A DNA stretch of 64,000 nt from Enterobacteria phage Ac3. The notes under the pieces were generated by a model. The model did no database searches. It saw only the letters and a list, made by a program, of their open reading frames with translations, and was not told where the DNA came from. The position numbers were made by a program, and so were the translations under genes. Location: sequence record OK040907. One strand, 5' to 3'. This document shows positions 1 through 35,683 of this stretch, piece by piece (positions within the stretch are counted from its first letter, which is position 1; every line of letters starts with the position of its first letter).

Positions 1-674
1 CCAAATCCCGTAAACTGGACTGTTACACCGAGTCTCATCACATTATCCCGCGCTGCCTGAATGGCTCCGATGACGCGAGCAACCTGGTAGACCTGACCCC
101 TGAGGAACATTACGTTGCACACCAGCTCCTGGTTAAAATTTATCCGTCCGAGCCAAAACTGATTTACGCTGCCAACATGATGACTGTATCCACTAAATAT
201 GCTAAACGCAATAACAAAACGTTCGGTTGGATCCGTCGCAAACTGTGGGAAATCGAAAAAAACAAAGAATTCTCTCAGGAAACCCGTAAGAAAATGTCCG
301 ATGCGGTTGCCAACAAGGCGCGCCTGACCTGCCCGCACTGTGGTAAATCTGGCCTGTCTGGTAACATGAATCGTTGGCACTTCGATAATTGCCCGAACCA
401 CCCGAATCCGAAAGTGCGTCCTCCGATGTCTAAAGAACACCGTAATAACATCAGCAACGGTCTGAAAGCAATTATCCTGGAGGAAACCTCTTGCGAATTC
501 TGCGGTATGATCGGCAAGAAATGCGTGATTGCAGCTCACCGTAACTTCTGTAAGAAAAACCCGAACGGCCGTAAGAAAACCGAGAAAACCGGTACTTGCG
601 TGCACTGCGGTAAAGTTACGACCTTTGGCAACCTGAGCCGTTGGCACAACGACAACTGCAAGCACAAACACTAA
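1..674 (+). CDS. HNH homing endonuclease, C-terminal part (5' end outside window)
   Basis: Frame starting at nt 3 reads SHHIIPRCLNGSDDASNLVDLTPEEHYVAHQLL (HNH motif) then three CxxC...W-x-D/N-NC zinc-finger-like repeats; no in-frame stop upstream; E. coli-type codons. Confidence 0.75.
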   Translation, partial: KSRKLDCYTESHHIIPRCLNGSDDASNLVDLTPEEHYVAHQLLVKIYPSEPKLIYAANMMTVSTKYAKRNNKTFGWIRRKLWEIEKNKEFSQETRKKMSDAVANKARLTCPHCGKSGLSGNMNRWHFDNCPNHPNPKVRPPMSKEHRNNISNGLKAIILEETSCEFCGMIGKKCVIAAHRNFCKKNPNGRKKTEKTGTCVHCGKVTTFGNLSRWHNDNCKHKH

Positions 675-2359
675 TTGATCGTAGCAACGGAGAAACGACC
701 CACTTTCTCCATTTTGATGTGCTGACCGTAGTCCTGTGGGTCGTGGTCTTTGTGGCTGATAATGAAAAAGTTAGTATCTTTCAGGCCATCGAGAATTTTA
801 GCGACGTTTTTGATACCTTCGGCGTCGAACGCGCCATCGTACACTTCATCCAGGAACAGGCAAGAGATTTTTACACCAGAGACTTTTTCGGCGATGTCAC
901 GCCAGGTGAACAGGAGGGCGATATCGATACGTGCCTTTTCGCCTTGGGAGAAGGATGCATAAGAGAAATCTTCGCGGCCGCGGGATTTGATAGTTTCGTT
1001 GAATTCCTCGTCCAGGGTGAAAACATAGTCCGCCTCCATAATTTTCAGATAATGGTTGATCTGTTTGTTGAACAGCGGGATGTATTTCTTAATGATCGCG
1101 CCCTTGATGCCGCTGTCTTTCAGCATGTCGGTCAGGATGCCACGGTGGTATTTTTCCATCACCAGGTTGGTTTTAGTCTTCACGATCTTATCCAGCTCTT
1201 CCTGCAGGAGGGCAATTTCGTCCGCGTGGTCAATGAATTCAGAGGAAGCTTTTTCAATGGCAGCTTTAACTTTCTTAGCTTTGTCAACCGTGGTAATCAG
1301 GGACTGTTTCTTGTTACGAATATCGTTCGCCAGAGACTGTTGGGTCTTAATGTTATCACGATATTCGTCCACCAGGACTTTCAGGTTATCGCGGTGGGTG
1401 GACAGTTGTTCAAAAGAGTGGGTGCATTCGCTCACCTTATCTTTAATTTTGCTCACAACTTTATCACCGCTGGACAGTTGAGACAGGCAGGTCGGACACA
1501 GACCGCCCTCGTGGTACATGTTGATAACTTTGTTGTAGCTATCGATTTTGGATTTAATCAGCACGGCCTCCTGGCCAATTTTGTTAAAAGCATCAGTAGG
1601 GTCTTCGTCCAGCACGATGTTGACCAGACGTTCATTCGCTTCCTCGATTTCGCTTTTCAGGGTACGAGCTTCTTTAGCCAGATCGTCGTACATGTTCTGC
1701 AGGCGCGTCAGGTTGTCACCGGTCAGTTTCTTCTGACGTTCTACGTTGTCGTTGTAGATCTTGATCTGTTGGATAATAGAGTCTTTCTTCACATCCAGTA
1801 CCTGGTTCTGAGAGTTCAGTTCACGGATCAGTGCTTTGTTCAGTTTGTCCATCTCCGCCAGGGTGCCAACCTCCAGGAGGTCTTCGACCAGCTTACGGCG
1901 TGCTGGAGTGCTCAGGCCCATGAACGGAGTGTAACCCGCAGTGCCGAGCACAACAATCTGCTTGAAGCTAGCGTAAGACATACCGATCAGCTGTTCGAAC
2001 TCGGCCTGAAAATCTTTGGAAGAGGCAGATTCGTTCAGACGGGTGCCGTTCACAGTGATTTCAAAGACGTTTGGTTTTTGACCGCGTTTGATGTAATATT
2101 TCTTTTCGTCATATTCCATCCACAGTTCTACCAGGAGTTCTTTCTTATTGGTGCTGTTGATCAGCTGGCCTTTCTTAACGTCGCGGAACGGTTTACCGAA
2201 GAGGCCGAAGGTAATAGCCTCCAGCATGGTAGATTTACCGCCACCGTTACGACCAGTGATCAGGGTTTTCTGAACTTTGTCCAGCTGGATATCAACGCCG
2301 TTCTGGCCTACGCTCATAATGTTCTTGTATTTAACACGGTTCAGTTTAAAGGATTTCAT
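671..2359 (-). CDS. 46: gp46 recombination endonuclease subunit (Rad50/SbcC-like ATPase)
   Basis: 562 aa; N-terminal Walker A GRNGGGKST, central coiled coil with CPTC zinc hook, signature FSQGE, Walker B LFLDEV; partner gene 47 nearby; written in E. coli-optimal codons. Confidence 0.9.
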   Translation of the reverse strand: MKSFKLNRVKYKNIMSVGQNGVDIQLDKVQKTLITGRNGGGKSTMLEAITFGLFGKPFRDVKKGQLINSTNKKELLVELWMEYDEKKYYIKRGQKPNVFEITVNGTRLNESASSKDFQAEFEQLIGMSYASFKQIVVLGTAGYTPFMGLSTPARRKLVEDLLEVGTLAEMDKLNKALIRELNSQNQVLDVKKDSIIQQIKIYNDNVERQKKLTGDNLTRLQNMYDDLAKEARTLKSEIEEANERLVNIVLDEDPTDAFNKIGQEAVLIKSKIDSYNKVINMYHEGGLCPTCLSQLSSGDKVVSKIKDKVSECTHSFEQLSTHRDNLKVLVDEYRDNIKTQQSLANDIRNKKQSLITTVDKAKKVKAAIEKASSEFIDHADEIALLQEELDKIVKTKTNLVMEKYHRGILTDMLKDSGIKGAIIKKYIPLFNKQINHYLKIMEADYVFTLDEEFNETIKSRGREDFSYASFSQGEKARIDIALLFTWRDIAEKVSGVKISCLFLDEVYDGAFDAEGIKNVAKILDGLKDTNFFIISHKDHDPQDYGQHIKMEKVGRFSVATIN

Positions 2360-2374
2360 TTTGTATCCAATTGT

Positions 2375-3240
2375 TTAGAGGCTAGAGAATTCTTTTACCA
2401 GGGCTTGCAGGCTAGCTTCGATCGGATAACCATTTTTCACCAGCATTTTACGGAACATCACGTGTTTAGGACGGTTATAGCTGATCCACAGTTCGTACAG
2501 TTTGTCTTTGTTGTCCCAGTGGTAACCTTTGCGACGGCTGGCAATGTGAGCCTTACGAATCTCCGGATTTTTCCAGCTTGCAGCGACAGAGTTGGAAATC
2601 GGCTTTTGATATTTTGAGACGGGCACAGCGGAGCGAAAGGCTTACGAGTGTTGAGTTTGGTGCGTTTCATGGTCAGACCGTTTGCCAGATGCCACTGGAA
2701 TTTCTGTTTAGTTTTGAAGTTATTCAGACGTTCTTTGTTATCCTTACGGTTTTTCGCTACGGAGAAGTATTTCAGTGCGCGTTCACGAGCTGCATTACGG
2801 TTCTGTGGGTTGGAGTAATACTGTTGCAGGCGTTTAGAAATGGTATCGGAAACATCCTGTTTGATAAAAGAGTATTCTGCCGCAATCAGATCAACTTCTG
2901 CCAGGCTGAGGTTTTTATAGGTTTTGCCAGACATCATACGATTCAGCGCGTTCAGCATTTTACCGTTTTTACCTTTTGCCAGGAGGAAGTGTGCTTTAAA
3001 GTGGTTAAAGTGGCTGAGGTTCACCAGGTTCCAGGTAGATTTGAGATATTCCGGGAAGATAGATTTCGGCAGCACGTGATGTGCTTCGGTCTTGCCCGGA
3101 GTCTTAACGGTGCTGTTAACGCTAATGAAGTTGATATAGGACTTAGCGTCTTCCTCAGACAGCGCCAGTTTTTCCACCAGTTCTTTGATCAGGAATTCAT
3201 CGTTGATGTCCAGTTTGAAGTTTTTAACAAAAGATTCCTT
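2375..3240 (-). pseudogene. HNH (Mob-like) homing endonuclease, frameshifted and without a clear start
   Basis: Upstream frame has AHHVLPKS...NLVNLSHFNHFKAH; coding continues in another frame (SWKNPEIRKAHIASRRKGYHWD...) after an apparent 1-nt deletion near 2600; in-frame stop at 3241-3243 with no ATG before GTG 3177. Confidence 0.6.
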
Positions 3241-14148: not shown

Positions 14149-14319
14149 TTAGTTGCGCAGCTTATTCAGTTCCTCGTCATCGATCCAAGACTCCAGACCG
14201 GACGGCAGAGCACATTCGATCTCCCACAGGAGTTCCTCAATTTTCTGCAGGCGATCCAGTTCCTCAGCCGGGATGGTCACCATGGACGGTGCACGGCTTA
14301 CGTTAATGTCATAGATCAT
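14149..14319 (-). CDS. small acidic hypothetical protein (E. coli-optimal codons)
   Basis: 56 aa MIYDINVSRAPSMVTIPAEELDRLQKIEELLWEIECALPSGLESWIDDEELNKLRN; below the 60-aa ORF-track cutoff; island bounded exactly by its start and stop codons. Confidence 0.5.
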   Translation of the reverse strand: MIYDINVSRAPSMVTIPAEELDRLQKIEELLWEIECALPSGLESWIDDEELNKLRN

Positions 14320-22637: not shown

Positions 22638-23648
22638 TTACTTATAGTAGGAGCGGTGGTTCTCCAGGTAAACTTTTTCCAGAAAGTCATCCCAGAAACC
22701 CATGTCAACCTTTTGCTGCATGCCATTCTTGGATGCTTCCGTGCTCGCAGCCTCCACCTGATCAACTACGTCCTCGAGGAATTCCTGCACGGTTTTGAAC
22801 GGGTGCTTGCCCAGTTTGACATCCAGGATAAACGGCGCATCCTGCAGTGGGTAGATCAGGTCGCCGGTTTTGTAAATTTCCAGGAGCTGCAGGCCACCGC
22901 GGCATGCATGGGACAGAGCTTTCCAGTCGATGCCTTCGTTTGCCTCTGCTTTGCGGGCGCGTTCGCCGTATTCAGCATCCAGTTTATTCAGGGATTGTTT
23001 CAGTTCGATCAGGCTCAGGGTAGTCTGATATTTACGACCCAGCACCGTATAGAAAGTTTGCGGGCCGGTTTTTTCGTGGTTGTGAAACACCCATTCACAG
23101 AATTCGTTTTCCGGCAGGCGGTGTTTGATATCTTCGATTTTGGTACGGCGTTGACCCTGAGTGCCGTCTTCGCGATAAACGTTGCGCTGGTCCGGGATCT
23201 GATTCACGACTTTCAGGACGTCGCGCAGAGCGGCCAGACGGGAGCCCTTAACACCATATTTAGAGGCTTGTTTGCGTACATAGCCCAGGTAAGATTTCAT
23301 ATTGGTAGTGTAGAAGCGGCTGCGGTTGTCCTGAATGAATTTCCAAACGTCAGGCAGATCGCTCTTAACCACCAGTTCTGGCGGCGTATGCAGCATGTCG
23401 AGTGCCACGGTCTCACCGTCCGCAGCCAGTTTGAAAAAATACTTGAGGCTATACAGTTCGTGGTCGATGTCATCTTTGGTATTCTTGCTAGAGGTATTGT
23501 TGGTGTTTTTAGACATGTGTTCTTTCACGTTGCCGATCAGAATGTCACGTGCCGGTGGCACGAAGATCTCTTTGAAGTCGACATCGCTTTCCGGGGTGGA
23601 AGTGCCGTACAGGTGGCTGCCAAAGTAGGATTTCATCACAGTCTTCAT
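22638..23648 (-). CDS. Pol-beta-superfamily nucleotidyltransferase
   Basis: 336 aa; N-terminal GSHLYGTSTPESDVDF (GS...DxD NTase motif) with later acidic residues and helical C-terminal region; E. coli-optimal codons; start overlaps upstream stop (TAATG). Confidence 0.65.
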   Translation of the reverse strand: MKTVMKSYFGSHLYGTSTPESDVDFKEIFVPPARDILIGNVKEHMSKNTNNTSSKNTKDDIDHELYSLKYFFKLAADGETVALDMLHTPPELVVKSDLPDVWKFIQDNRSRFYTTNMKSYLGYVRKQASKYGVKGSRLAALRDVLKVVNQIPDQRNVYREDGTQGQRRTKIEDIKHRLPENEFCEWVFHNHEKTGPQTFYTVLGRKYQTTLSLIELKQSLNKLDAEYGERARKAEANEGIDWKALSHACRGGLQLLEIYKTGDLIYPLQDAPFILDVKLGKHPFKTVQEFLEDVVDQVEAASTEASKNGMQQKVDMGFWDDFLEKVYLENHRSYYK

Positions 23649-24109
23649 TATTCAGCTTTGTATTCGATCACCGGACACACTTTCGCTTTGCGCGCTTTCA
23701 GGAACTCAACAATGATAGATTTCTTCGGTTGGATTGGCGGCAGGCCTTTGTAAGCGCGATCGATGTTTTCAACGTGCAGCGCGTAATCTTTCTTCCATTT
23801 GTAGTCTTTGTATTTCTCACGCAGGTGCGCCGGAATCACGAAGGAGCCGATAATCAGGAGAACCACCAGGAGTGCCAGAATGAACGCGGATGGCAGGAGG
23901 GTCCACAGGCTACCGAAGATCAGCCAGCGCTGCAGGGATTCAGCACAGATAATAGTCAGACCAACCAGGATGGCACAACCGAAGATGGAAACGAAAAACG
24001 TCGGGATGGCGATAGACCAGAAGTACGCGCACAGGGTTTTAGGGCGCTGCCACTCGTCGTTAAACAGTTTGAACAGCTTATAGTGCCAAGAGTTTTCATT
24101 AATGATCAT
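23648..24109 (-). CDS. small membrane protein coupled to the NTase
   Basis: 153 aa, 2-3 hydrophobic helices then basic tail; AAGGA SD; E. coli-optimal codons. Confidence 0.6.
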   Translation of the reverse strand: MIINENSWHYKLFKLFNDEWQRPKTLCAYFWSIAIPTFFVSIFGCAILVGLTIICAESLQRWLIFGSLWTLLPSAFILALLVVLLIIGSFVIPAHLREKYKDYKWKKDYALHVENIDRAYKGLPPIQPKKSIIVEFLKARKAKVCPVIEYKAE

Positions 24110-27140: not shown

Positions 27141-27722
27141 CTAACCGAGCTTTTTAGTTAATTCATTCCAATGTTTTCTACACAAAGAAACATAAATTTC
27201 ATCACCAATACAGATTTGATTACCTTCTTTAACTGGTGTTCCATCTTCCATTAATCGAGCTGTCATAATCGCTTTTTTGCCGCAATGACAAACTGCCTTT
27301 AGTTCAATAAGTTTATCTGCAATCGCTAAAAGTTCTTTAGAACCTTCAAACAATTTTCCAGCGAAATCAGTCCTTAATCCATAAGCCATAACAGGAACAT
27401 TATATGTATCAACAATTCGGCTCAATTGATGCACTTGTTCAGTTTTTAAAAACTGAGCTTCATCTACAAATACACAATGAATATCTTTTTGTGCTTCAGC
27501 CCATTTATAGAACTCGAAAATATCCATATCATCTGTAATAATATTCGCTTCCTGTTTAATTCCAATGCGAGAAACAACTTCACAGACAGAATCGCGAGTA
27601 TCAATAGCAGGCTTAAGAACTAATACACTCATTCCACGTTCTTTATAATTATGTGCAGCAGTCAAAAGAGAAGCAGATTTTCCAGCATTCATTGCTGCAT
27701 AAGTAAAAATTAAACTCGCCAT
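27141..27722 (-). CDS. tk: thymidine kinase
   Basis: 193 aa, P-loop AMNAGKS, C-terminal Zn cysteines; matches T4 Tk. Confidence 0.92.
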   Translation of the reverse strand: MASLIFTYAAMNAGKSASLLTAAHNYKERGMSVLVLKPAIDTRDSVCEVVSRIGIKQEANIITDDMDIFEFYKWAEAQKDIHCVFVDEAQFLKTEQVHQLSRIVDTYNVPVMAYGLRTDFAGKLFEGSKELLAIADKLIELKAVCHCGKKAIMTARLMEDGTPVKEGNQICIGDEIYVSLCRKHWNELTKKLG

Positions 27723-27731
27723 ATCACCTTC

Positions 27732-27917
27732 TTAAAGCGTATTCACATAAGCTATTAATTCATTTTCTTTCTTATCAAACCGATCAGCAAATTCTTCCTG
27801 CTGTTCAGGAGATAGCGGGCCGTATTCATCATAAAAGGTGTTTGCTTCTGTATGCTCATCTAGAAGTTCATGGATAAGCTCAAACAATTTATCTTTTTGT
27901 TCTTTACTCAGACTCAT
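27732..27917 (-). CDS. hypothetical acidic protein
   Basis: 61-aa ORF. Confidence 0.5.
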   Translation of the reverse strand: MSLSKEQKDKLFELIHELLDEHTEANTFYDEYGPLSPEQQEEFADRFDKKENELIAYVNTL

Positions 27918-28083
27918 ATATTAATTTCCAGGAGTTTTAAAATAATTCGCTTTTGCTTAAATATTTCCATAGTTAAATGACTAGTATCTTTTTGACCGAT
28001 TCCAATGGCAAAACCTTTATTAACAGCGAGTTCAATTAAATTATCAAGCTCACGTAACACTTCGTATTGTAACTCAAAACTAT

Positions 28084-28514
28084 TTATTTCGGTTTACCTT
28101 CCTTCACGAAGTCTGGGTACGGATAAAAGCCAGAGTAGAAACCTTCGCCTTTGTGGTTGATACAACCTTTGTTGGAACAATAGCACCAGTAATCGAAATC
28201 GCAAGCCATTTCGTCGTTGCACAGGGCGAAAACGACCGGCCATTTACATTTTTCACAGTGCGCGTTTTTCAGGATGGAAGTCTGGGATACCGCCAGGTGA
28301 CTTTCAGGCAGTATTCCTCCACATGCTGTTTGCGACCTTTCTTGTCGATGAAGGTGTATTCAACGAAGGTACCGATGTAATCTTTATCCACGTCGTGCGG
28401 AGAGTTGATCGGGCACTTAGTACGGCAGATGCGTTCCCACTGACGAATGATTACAGCCTTGTTTTTCGGGTCGAACGGGTGTGGATAATGTACTTTTACA
28501 GCAGCGGCTCCCAA
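28084..28514 (-). pseudogene. Cys/His-rich putative zinc-binding domain, disrupted by frameshifts (probably once fused to the upstream macro domain)
   Basis: Coding in E. coli-optimal codons switches frame near 28292-28297 (..KVTW / AVSQTSILKNAHCEKCKW..); its start has no ATG and overlaps the macro gene stop, where re-inserting one G would fuse the frames. Confidence 0.5.
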
Positions 28515-28963
28515 TCAACGATTACGATTTCCAGTTTGGAAGAATAGGTGTCCAGGATACCTTCAATGATGTCCCAGTTGCCTTTACCGATGCCGGCGCC
28601 GATGCGCGGCATGTAGATGGTTGGTTTGATCAGTTTGTTTTCACCGAATTCGTTCAGCTCCAGCATACAATTCATCAGCGCAGAATATTCAAAGTTTGGG
28701 CCCGGCTGGAACTGAGTGTACAGGTTAAAACAGTACGCTTTGTGGGTGCGAAAGTACTTTTCATACACGGAGTAGCTACCCAGTTTAGTCACGTCGCCCC
28801 ATTCGGTCTGCAGCTTGTCAGCTTCCAGGATTTTCGGAAACGCTTTGGTCAGCTGACCGGCTACACCCGCTTTCATGGTATGGAAGCAGTTACAGCCGTG
28901 AGCGATGTTTTTACCTTCGGCAAACAGCGCTACGATATCGCCTTTGATGTATTTGACAATCAT
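28496..28963 (-). CDS. macro domain protein, TARG1/OARD1/DarG-like (putative ADP-ribose hydrolase)
   Basis: 155 aa; KGDIVALF...HGCNCFHTMKAGVAGQL...MPRIGAGIGKGNWD matches TARG1-family macro motifs; E. coli-optimal codons; ATGA overlap with upstream gene. Confidence 0.7.
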   Translation of the reverse strand: MIVKYIKGDIVALFAEGKNIAHGCNCFHTMKAGVAGQLTKAFPKILEADKLQTEWGDVTKLGSYSVYEKYFRTHKAYCFNLYTQFQPGPNFEYSALMNCMLELNEFGENKLIKPTIYMPRIGAGIGKGNWDIIEGILDTYSSKLEIVIVDWEPLL

Positions 28964-29301
28964 CTAGTACTCAATCCTCGATTATAAGAATCTACCAAAC
29001 GGTCAACCATTGAATGACAAGCGGCTTTATCTTTCTCCTCCGCAACTGAACATTCTAAAGTATTCCACTTTTTAGCATATCGTTTTAATAATGTATCGTT
29101 TTTGTATCTGCTTGATTTATCTCTTTCTCCGTCTTTGTATGCATATATTAATTTCTGTGCAAATTCAGCTTGGCATGCTTTATTTTTCCCACAATAATCT
29201 GCCGCAGTGCGGTTTACATACTCTCTAATTTCAGTATATGATGTATCTGCTAACGCAGAAAATGAAATTAATCCTATACATAAAACCAAAATTTTAGTCA
29301 T
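28960..29301 (-). CDS. secreted/periplasmic hypothetical protein
   Basis: 113 aa with signal peptide MTKILVLCIGLISFSALA. Confidence 0.55.
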   Translation of the reverse strand: MTKILVLCIGLISFSALADTSYTEIREYVNRTAADYCGKNKACQAEFAQKLIYAYKDGERDKSSRYKNDTLLKRYAKKWNTLECSVAEEKDKAACHSMVDRLVDSYNRGLSTR

Positions 29302-29839
29302 TTACTATTTCCAAAAGTTTATTATTTTTAAGGTAATTAGCCTTTTCTAGGACTTCAGAAGCATATTTAGAACCTGCTTTAACATTCCATCCCGAATTAT
29401 AAGAGGATATTGCTTTTCTTATATCGCCCTTATGTATATTTAACCAATAAGAAAGTTCAATGTACGCCCAGGAAGCTGAATTGGACCGTTTATTCAACAT
29501 TCTTTTTATTTCAGCATCGGTCATATTATAACCAAGTTCCTTAACTCTTGCTCGCATAGTAGGCAAATAATTTTGGAACATTCCATAAGCGTGATGCTTT
29601 GGTTTAGATTTTAAATTAACTCCGCCAGAGCTTTCTTGCCATAAAATAGCAGCCATTATATGACCTAATCCACTCTTGTGGATGTTTTTGTGTGTTTTAT
29701 ATTTTCCATCCTTAGAAAATTGTTCCCCGAATTGATACGCGTAACGCATGTTATCGAGTTGGACATTACTGAAAGTATGCTCGGAGCTATGTGCCATCAT
29801 TGAAATGGCCAATAGACCAGCGAGTAGTGCTTTTCTCAT
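29294..29839 (-). CDS. lytic transglycosylase-like secreted protein
   Basis: 181 aa, signal peptide, QESSGG...YGMFQ resembling SLT-domain catalytic region. Confidence 0.5.
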   Translation of the reverse strand: MRKALLAGLLAISMMAHSSEHTFSNVQLDNMRYAYQFGEQFSKDGKYKTHKNIHKSGLGHIMAAILWQESSGGVNLKSKPKHHAYGMFQNYLPTMRARVKELGYNMTDAEIKRMLNKRSNSASWAYIELSYWLNIHKGDIRKAISSYNSGWNVKAGSKYASEVLEKANYLKNNKLLEIVND

Positions 29840-29846
29840 GCTTACC

Positions 29847-30308
29847 TCATTGAGTTTTAATTACTGCTTTAGAAGCCTTTCCTGGTAAACGACGACTGTT
29901 AATAATTGCCATCCTACATTGGAGTGACGGGTCTTTGAACTTCTCATTAGGTTTACAAACCGTAAATCCAAGCCAAAGATTTCCATCTGTGATTTCTAAA
30001 CGTCCAGGACGATATTCAACCCCATCAATAAAATCCTCGTCAATGTCAGGACGCGGAGGCATACTCAGAAATTCATTAACTTCTAAAACATGGTCTTTTA
30101 TTTTATGGAATAATTCAAAAACGTATGTCTCATCAATCTCCCGTTGAATTGCGCGATCAAGAAGATGCTGAGAATATTTTAGATGAAACGATGAGACCCC
30201 TGCTGCTTTTGATGCCTCACGAATCTCATTGTTAATTTGACGAAACTCCGACTCAAAGTGACGACGAAGCTTATTTCGACGGATAAAAACTTCTGTATTG
30301 ATAGTCAT
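29847..30308 (-). CDS. regB: RegB endoribonuclease
   Basis: 153 aa, size/sequence/position match T4 RegB. Confidence 0.7.
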   Translation of the reverse strand: MTINTEVFIRRNKLRRHFESEFRQINNEIREASKAAGVSSFHLKYSQHLLDRAIQREIDETYVFELFHKIKDHVLEVNEFLSMPPRPDIDEDFIDGVEYRPGRLEITDGNLWLGFTVCKPNEKFKDPSLQCRMAIINSRRLPGKASKAVIKTQ

Positions 30309-30963: not shown

Positions 30964-31141
30964 CTAAACGAATAGGTTCATGAATGCCATATCCTTGAAC
31001 AGAAATTTCTGTCGTAGGATAAATTCCATCAATATCACCCATATTCCAGGCTTCATTAAATTGCTGTTCGCCTGAATTACTAAACCACTCGGCGAAAGCA
31101 TTTAGCACATCTTTAGAACCTTCAATAATTATCTTTGCCAT
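30920..31141 (-). CDS. hypothetical protein
   Basis: 73-aa ORF. Confidence 0.45.
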   Translation of the reverse strand: MAKIIIEGSKDVLNAFAEWFSNSGEQQFNEAWNMGDIDGIYPTTEISVQGYGIHEPIRLVEYDLCTGEEVKYD

Positions 31142-31840: not shown

Positions 31841-32427
31841 TGCATTCCAATCACAAAAAATTGAGGACGAACTGTTTCACCTGTTTCAGCATTATAGCTT
31901 CGACAACAGTGTTGTACCGTTTTAATATGGATATTGTAAATCTTATCCATATCAGGAGCTTTAATAGGTTCGTCAATTATGTACAAGATACGAGAAAGCG
32001 ATAACCCACGGAATTTATGACCTTCATTACCGATAAAACTACGGACAGAATCAGTAAATAAACGGAATCGAATATCATCGCTAGAATAACGAGAAAATTC
32101 TTTTTCAATGTTGCCAGCAGAAATTTTAGCGTAAGCTGAAGTATTAGAAAGAACAATAACTGTTCCGCCATCATACAGCCAATTAGCAGCAAAGTTAGTC
32201 ACAGCAATTGATTTACCGGATTGACGTCCACCATCTATACGAAGTGTGCAGTACTGTTTGAGCACATCTTCCATTGGTGGAAGATAATCATTCTTACAAA
32301 TTTCTTCTACTCTAGCATCAGAATGGTGTGTAAAAGCATTCATCAGGGATAGATAAGGACCAGTTAAAAATGTTCTCATTTTATTCTCTCTAAGTTTGGG
32401 CCATTCCGTGGCGCATGAATTGTCCAT
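31837..32427 (-). CDS. P-loop NTPase-like protein (start may be internal)
   Basis: GGRQSGKS Walker A-like and IIDE Walker B-like motifs. Confidence 0.5.
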   Translation of the reverse strand: MDNSCATEWPKLRENKMRTFLTGPYLSLMNAFTHHSDARVEEICKNDYLPPMEDVLKQYCTLRIDGGRQSGKSIAVTNFAANWLYDGGTVIVLSNTSAYAKISAGNIEKEFSRYSSDDIRFRLFTDSVRSFIGNEGHKFRGLSLSRILYIIDEPIKAPDMDKIYNIHIKTVQHCCRSYNAETGETVRPQFFVIGMQ

Positions 32428-35289: not shown

Positions 35290-35683
35290 TCAGTTCTGGC
35301 TTTTGCAGCGGCTCTCTTTTACGAATTTCATGATTTCATCAAATTCGTGAGCCGCCAGCTTCAGCTGGTGTTCTTTCTTGATTTTCTTGCACTGCGCTTT
35401 CCAGTCACGAACACGTTTGCGATAATGACGACCCTGGTACCAGTAACCGATCCAGTTGATCGGCACGAGCAGGAGCGGAACCACCAGCGGCAGGATCAGG
35501 GTAGCGCCGAAGATTGCGCCGGATTCGATATCAGTCATAACGTCGATAACCATACCGGCAATAACCAGAATAACAAAAGAGACCACAACCACCGGACCGA
35601 TCAGCACGTCAGTGGAGATAATTTGGCGCTTCAGTTCGTATTTCAGTGGTTTGCTCGGCAGGTACAGAGACGGTTTGGACATA
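35290..35683 (-). CDS. membrane protein (same family, E. coli-optimal codons)
   Basis: 130 aa from ATG 35683 (MSKPSLYLPSK...), two hydrophobic helices, basic tail ending ..ESRCKSQN; ORF track extends to 35703 through native sequence. Confidence 0.55.

Follow-up and report, generated by a model that had tools for sequence, protein, structure and literature searches.

The region at 28084–28963 of Enterobacteria phage Ac3 (OK040907; the 64,000-nt stretch analysed here is called the window) is, with a probability of about 0.93, an RB51/RB68-type tk.4–tk.3–RB32ORF111c segment whose codons were artificially exchanged, in silico or in synthetic DNA, for synonymous ones preferred by E. coli. A first-pass annotation had described the same region as a TARG1/DarG-like macro domain followed by a Cys-rich domain and broken by two single-G deletions. 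Its 155-aa macro ORF with the quoted motifs is indeed found on the minus strand, and coding does continue out of frame downstream, in two other frames and with the Cys motifs, to position 28084. The deletions themselves do not exist, as the 880-nt segment has the length of its RB51 and RB68 counterparts and differs by 196 substitutions and 0 indels. The features discussed below are collected in Table 1.

Table 1. Recoded blocks, genes and junctions of the window (positions are those of the window)
Feature	Position	Strand	Observation
Recoded block 1	2–3226		
Recoded block 2	14152–14314		
Recoded block 3	22639–24104		
Recoded block 4 (tk.4/tk.3/RB32ORF111c)	28085–28955		196 substitutions, 0 indels; flanks 100% identical to RB51
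Recoded block 5	35291–35677		
tk.4/adfM	28496–28963	-	155 aa; ORF intact, synonymously recoded; 111 nt and 0 aa differences from RB51
tk.3 (DUF7202; natural 70 aa)	28287–28499	-	Codons 2–69 synonymous with RB51
RB32ORF111c-type zinc-binding protein (natural 68 aa)	28084–28290	-	Codons 2–68 synonymous
RB32ORF110c (57 aa)	27914–28087	-	Itself without recoding
Junction 1 ('first deletion' of the first-pass annotation)	28496–28501	-	TTATGA to CTGTAA
Junction 2 ('second deletion' of the first-pass annotation)	28287–28296	-	Natural ACATGGTTATGA to ACCTGGCGGTAT

A whole-window comparison aligns the window base for base with positions 32001–96000 of RB51 (FJ839693), with 0 indels. The 1513 substitutions in total are made up of five gene-bounded blocks and three isolated SNPs (17918 T>C, 51140 C>T and 60975 A>G). 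RB68 shares the last of these with the window but departs from it at 31050; therefore, the backbone is close to both RB51 and RB68 and identical to neither record. Judged from its sequence, it is the backbone of an RB51/RB68-type T-even phage. A megablast search with 27700–29400 returned matches in 725 records, covering hundreds of T-even phages, with RB51/RB68 as the best match at 88.5% identity and exactly equal length.

Within block 4, approximately 85–90% of the substitutions are located at codon position 3. No amino-acid change is found in tk.4, and those in tk.3 and RB32ORF111c (below, ORF111c) are limited to the first or last codons at the junctions. The GC content increases from about 0.35 in RB51 to about 0.48, with values of 0.47–0.52. 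Sixteen rare codons which are common in the natural genes (TTA, TTG, CTT, CTA, ATA, GGA, GGG, AGA, AGG, CGA, CGG, AGT, TCA, TCG, ACA and CCC) are used 0 times in the 1758 recoded codons; for leucine, 140 natural codons but 0 recoded ones are TTA, TTG, CTT or CTA. The other codons of the recoded genes occur in E. coli-preferred proportions. The block edges sit within the first and last codons, and the other four blocks display the same pattern. Overall, the changes are substitutions only, lie inside ORFs, keep the protein and leave out the rare codons, between flanks that are identical to RB51. Such a combination of saturating synonymous change, absence of replacements, exclusion of rare codons and perfect flanks is impossible by natural divergence and indicates artificial recoding.

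T-even genomes are mosaic, and a sharply bounded block with a different GC content might also be explained by recombination, with the three genes having been replaced horizontally by the alleles of a relative with higher GC. This mosaic block has next to no probability, given a nucleotide divergence of around 22% without a single amino-acid change next to flanks of 100% identity, edges inside the first and last codons, the complete lack of 16 codons, destroyed start codons and an identical pattern in four other blocks. Moreover, such an allele has no counterpart in the database: among 50,697 records, no phage exceeded 78.5% identity to the full-length block, while the flanks match at 100%. The block is more like synthetic codon-optimised or refactored phage genes, which share the synonymous-only changes, the absence of rare codons, the raised GC content and the edges at the ends of coding sequences. 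However, when refactoring is done with care, overlapping genes are pulled apart or protected, whereas the segment in the window lost three downstream starts and one stop.

These losses become clear from the natural gene arrangement. In the annotations of RB51, RB68, RB14 and T4, this region contains separate genes and not one ORF. The RB51-type order is vs, tk.4 (155 aa), tk.3 (70 aa), ORF111c (68 aa) and RB32ORF110c (57 aa; below, ORF110c), and in the natural relatives successive genes are linked by 4-nt ATGA stop/start overlaps. Since an ATGA overlap always shifts the downstream gene by one base, two frame changes are seen in the window. They fall at 28496–28499 and 28287–28292, which are the natural ATGA overlaps of three separate genes. 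In nature, tk.3 and ORF111c are translationally coupled to tk.4.

Profile searches give the same picture at the protein level. What had been taken for a Cys-rich domain of ~140 aa consists of two independent, whole small proteins. The natural tk.3 protein is matched by DUF7202 (PF23832; positions 1–70 of 70, 8e-39) and by phrog_2008 (positions 1–70 of 70), and the natural ORF111c protein by Phage_zn_bind (PF23895; positions 1–69 of 69, 2e-29) as well as by phrog_2306. For both proteins, the Pfam and PHROG profiles stop exactly at the gene ends. Of the Cys motifs, CRTKCP is in tk.3, while HCEKCKW, CNDEMAC and WCYC are in ORF111c.

The proposal of a decayed macro–zinc-finger fusion, i.e. an ancestral protein of ~295 aa turned into a pseudogene by two 1-nt deletions, can draw on the fact that one base added per junction gives a continuous 293-aa frame matching all three Pfam families, with GTA at both junctions where the next protein would begin. 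It is nevertheless refuted by the comparison with RB51 and RB68, which shows no indel. In the relatives, moreover, ATGA overlaps link three genes, and the Pfam and PHROG models describe complete small proteins with the same limits as these genes. The 120 listed Tk.4 homologues range from 95 to 246 aa, with most of them between 145 and 181 aa, and none has a domain besides Macro. T4, in addition, has tk.2 immediately after tk.4–tk.3, joined through the same TGGTTATGA junction, and has no zinc-binding gene at all. Therefore, ORF111c is an independent cassette.

The interval from tk to tk.3 differs between the two phage types. It contains tk.1 and tk.2 in T4 (L004, 3347–3926) and tk.2, ORF110c and ORF111c in the RB51 type (window 27732–28290). 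The Tk.2 proteins of T4 and the RB51-type phages share just 33 of 61 residues; nonetheless, the TGGTTATGA junction 3' of tk.3 is conserved. This interval is a small hot spot for the swapping of cassettes between T4 and RB51-type phages.

Homopolymer and indel errors often cause apparent frameshifts, and the first-pass annotation had named sequencing or construction errors as another option. The view that the locus is natural apart from errors of sequencing or assembly deserves almost no credence, since there are no indels and since 196 codon-structured synonymous differences are beyond any sequencing-error process. Of the readings in the first-pass annotation, its option of sequencing or construction errors still came nearest to the truth, as it was synonymous recoding that destroyed the overlapping starts.

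At junction 1, the tail of tk.4 changes from TTA-TGA to CTG-TAA, which is synonymous for tk.4 and thereby removes the ATG of tk.3, now GTA (28499–28497). At junction 2, TGG-TTA-TGA-GCC is changed to TGG-CGG-TAT-CCC. As a result, Leu70 of tk.3 (TTA) becomes Arg (CGG), its TGA stop becomes Tyr (TAT, 28289–28287) and the ATG of ORF111c becomes GTA (28290–28288). At the other end of ORF111c, the stop is altered from TGA to TAA, and because ORF110c overlaps this stop, its ATG start has become ATA at base 28085. The native ATGA overlap between tk.4 and vs at 28960–28963 is kept in the window.

Judged from the sequence, a sequential procedure very probably accounts for this pattern. The recoder would have taken the ORFs in turn, translating and back-translating each of them from the already-edited DNA. 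Starts and stops would have been handled as ordinary codons, leaving the 4-nt ATGA overlaps unprotected. The outcome would be a perfect tk.4, an ATG-to-GTA change in both tk.3 and ORF111c, a TAT in place of the tk.3 stop and an ATA in place of the ORF110c start. Taken together, this junction damage would create the appearance of one long ORF cut by two 1-nt deletions. In a brute-force test, the stretch 28270–28519 could be reached exactly from RB51 by substitutions only under this sequential model, provided that ORF111c was recoded after tk.3 and that its unit started upstream in frame, at ATG 28296 or TTG 28311, the mechanical start of the ORF.

A simple overwrite with independently recoded GenBank coding sequences was rejected: with the ORF111c start at 28290 it fails in all orders to give junction 2, as base 28291 stays unexplained. 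The RefSeq re-annotation has the same ORF111c start as GenBank. As this GenBank/RefSeq start fails, the ORF calls must have been the recoder's own, which fits the recoding of ORFs at 2375–3228 that are unannotated in RB51. The sequential model thus comes with the caveat that it implies a gene call differing from the public annotation.

The same bases can also be obtained by dropping a G from CTGCTG-GTA-AAA and a T from TGG-CTG-GTA-TCC, which gives the window exactly and shortens a length of 882 by 2, to the natural 880. Accordingly, a designed codon-optimised Tk.4–Tk.3–ORF111c fusion could be imagined, in which each Met1 was changed to Val and one base was removed per junction, either as a planted frameshift or by a synthesis error. 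Such a design is very unlikely, as it would take three ad hoc steps (a Met-to-Val change at two places and a pair of exact deletions which happen to bring back the natural length), while overlap-blind recoding accounts for the same bases. Overlap-blind recoding also covers the unrelated damage in the other blocks, which give no hint of a fusion.

For the DNA as written, the reading frames suggest that adfM (tk.4) would be intact, with its native upstream context kept. In contrast to adfM, tk.3 would have no ATG, with TTG 28514 as the sole in-frame alternative and an ORF extending to 28269. ORF111c could presumably be started only at ATG 28209, giving a product of 41 aa in which the first CxxC is missing, and ORF110c only at GTG 28060. 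In a promoter and terminator scan of 27700–29900, sites were no more numerous than in shuffled controls.

The four further blocks cover the mobB-like ORF054w, gene 46, two ORFs between 46 and 46.1, RB32ORF081c, nrdC.11 together with RB32ORF096c, and e.4. Their GC content is raised to 0.45–0.52, and 0 amino-acid changes are found in the genes tested. Neighbouring genes are affected at the block edges. The stop of 46.1 changes from TGA to TTA, and the GTG start of the adjoining 208-aa ORF changes to GTT (3225–3228). Furthermore, e.3 has lost its start (M1L) and carries K5E, while the last seven codons of e.5 are altered and its stop is lost (35290–35308; 35651–35682). Elsewhere in the window, recoding swapped stop codons both from TGA to TAA and from TAA to TGA.

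Two of the recoded ORFs overlap on the minus strand, one of 106 aa at 2375–2695 and one of 208 aa with a GTG start at 2602–3228, the latter with HNH-endonuclease-like motifs as seen by eye. Both are absent from the RB51 annotation, while the annotation of RB68 includes them in part (RB68_057 and RB68_058). Their 94-nt overlap is scrambled in both frames, as sequential recoding predicts.

The main value of these results is a caution: a false broken fusion arises from synonymous recoding that is blind to the 4-nt overlaps of T-even phages. The segment is therefore unsuited to follow-up as a pseudogene or as a new domain architecture. At least four other recoded blocks will give false anomalies of their own, such as GC islands or apparent foreign DNA, missing start and stop codons, and overlaps that look scrambled.

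The protein encoded by tk.4 is left unchanged by the recoding, and its assignment to the TARG1/DarG-like family in the first-pass annotation is borne out. Tk.4 scores 25.0 bits against Pfam Macro (PF01661; gathering cutoff 22, E 1.9e-5, residues 22–132), 1.4e-64 against phrog_335 and 1.1e-7 against the PADLOC DarG model. An AF2 model built with 40 homologues has a pLDDT of 94.7 and a pTM of 0.90. It has the three-layer alpha/beta/alpha macro fold, and its top 50 PDB matches are all macrodomains or designed enzymes on a macro scaffold. The best Foldseek matches are TARG1 (1.5e-9), BT1257, Poa1p and DarG macrodomains, with E values from 1e-9 to 4e-7 and TM scores of 0.7–0.8. In structure, these outrank the coronavirus, alphavirus and Af1521 macrodomains, and the ranking by sequence is concordant. 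As modelled, Tk.4 is thus of the TARG1/Poa1p/DarG-like subclass and not of the MacroD, PARG or viral nsP3 type. The members sharing this subclass of the macro fold are TARG1/OARD1 (4j5r), Poa1p (6lfr), BT1257 (2fg1) and DarG of T. aquaticus (5m31/5m3e) and M. tuberculosis (5m3i), and sequence matches of Tk.4 to these structures range from 2e-8 to 1e-2.

Residues 3–153 of Tk.4 are covered by the DarG models of NCBIfam and PADLOC. For the NCBIfam DarG equivalog (NF048014), Tk.4 scores 25 bits where 250 would be required, and it matches only profile positions 2–146 of 338. Unlike DarG, it has no C-terminal DarT-binding domain and is 155 aa long, compared to ~330 for the profile. No darT adjoins tk.4, its neighbours being vs and tk.3.

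The motif N80-x-Y82-T83-Q84 (28712–28726) is invariant in 40 aligned Tk.4 homologues. In TARG1 and DarG, the catalytic lysine is that of the T-K motif (K84 and K80, respectively). A manual alignment places Q84 of Tk.4 at the position of this lysine, in a stretch that is insecurely aligned. The strand-5 stretch is aligned differently, and in conflict, by BLASTP against TARG1 (with an approximate query sequence) and by hhalign against PhiKZ gp104. Going by the manual alignment, Gln may stand in the Tk.4 family where TARG1, DarG and the PhiKZ AdfM have their catalytic Lys, which would suggest a variant catalytic arrangement.

Residues 31–32 of Tk.4 (28868–28873) are K-A in the RB51-type phages, G-S in T4, and G-A or G-S in most homologues. 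They sit in the M-G-x-G loop beside the invariant G33, and K31-A32 is a natural variant in RB51.

Tk.4 of the window is identical to Tk.4 of RB51 and shares 153 of 155 residues with T4 Tk.4 (the differences being G31K and S32A). The T4 protein is AdfM, which has the length, the vs–tk.4–tk.3 synteny and the stand-alone DarG-like macrodomain in common with Tk.4 of the window. Near-identity and conserved gene order together identify tk.4 as the orthologue of adfM. According to a recent study (bioRxiv 10.1101/2025.11.20.689424), tk.4 was the single significant HIDEN-SEQ transposon hit on a host expressing DarTG2, and a clean tk.4 knockout made T4 sensitive to DarTG2; hence the name adfM, for anti-DarT factor Macrodomain. 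The anti-DarT role that had been guessed from the sequence is therefore correct for the orthologue and already published. In that study (bioRxiv 10.1101/2025.11.20.689424), the removal of ADP-ribose from DNA by T4 AdfM is put forward as a proposal. Compared to T4 tk.4, the DNA in the window is an artificial codon-optimised version, and protection against DarTG2 has been shown for T4 only.

For the AdfM of PhiKZ (gp104), it was demonstrated biochemically that ADP-ribose installed by DarT2 is stripped from a TNTC oligonucleotide (Cell Rep 2026, PMC13309987). An N23A mutant has impaired activity (PMC13309987). Like T4 AdfM, gp104 is a stand-alone phage macrodomain countering DarTG2. By hhalign, the Tk.4 family and gp104 are related with a probability of 95.5%, and the invariant N25 aligns with the catalytic-site N23. 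BLASTP gives only a remote similarity (E 0.018 over 23 residues). The two proteins differ in a motif, which is F-P-T-K as in DarG for PhiKZ AdfM and an invariant L-Y-T-Q for the Tk.4 family. In addition, the PhiKZ protein is imported into a phage nucleus, a structure that the T-even phages do not have.

By analogy, Tk.4 would hydrolyse ADP-ribose off DarT2-modified thymidines on phage ssDNA, thus neutralising DarT2, and this hydrolysis of ADP-ribosyl-thymidine is the most likely mechanism of Tk.4 in T4 and RB51. A more speculative and rather unlikely extension is that the AdfM of T-even phages is a mechanistically distinct DNA ADP-ribosyl hydrolase, acting with an invariant set of N25, D49 and T83-Q84 in place of the catalytic lysine. 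K31-A32 might also alter the substrate range, and tk.3 and ORF111c could be accessory anti-defence factors.

Behind the artificial codons lies a genuine gene, tk.4/adfM, whose role in counter-defence against DarTG2 is known from reports of 2025–2026.
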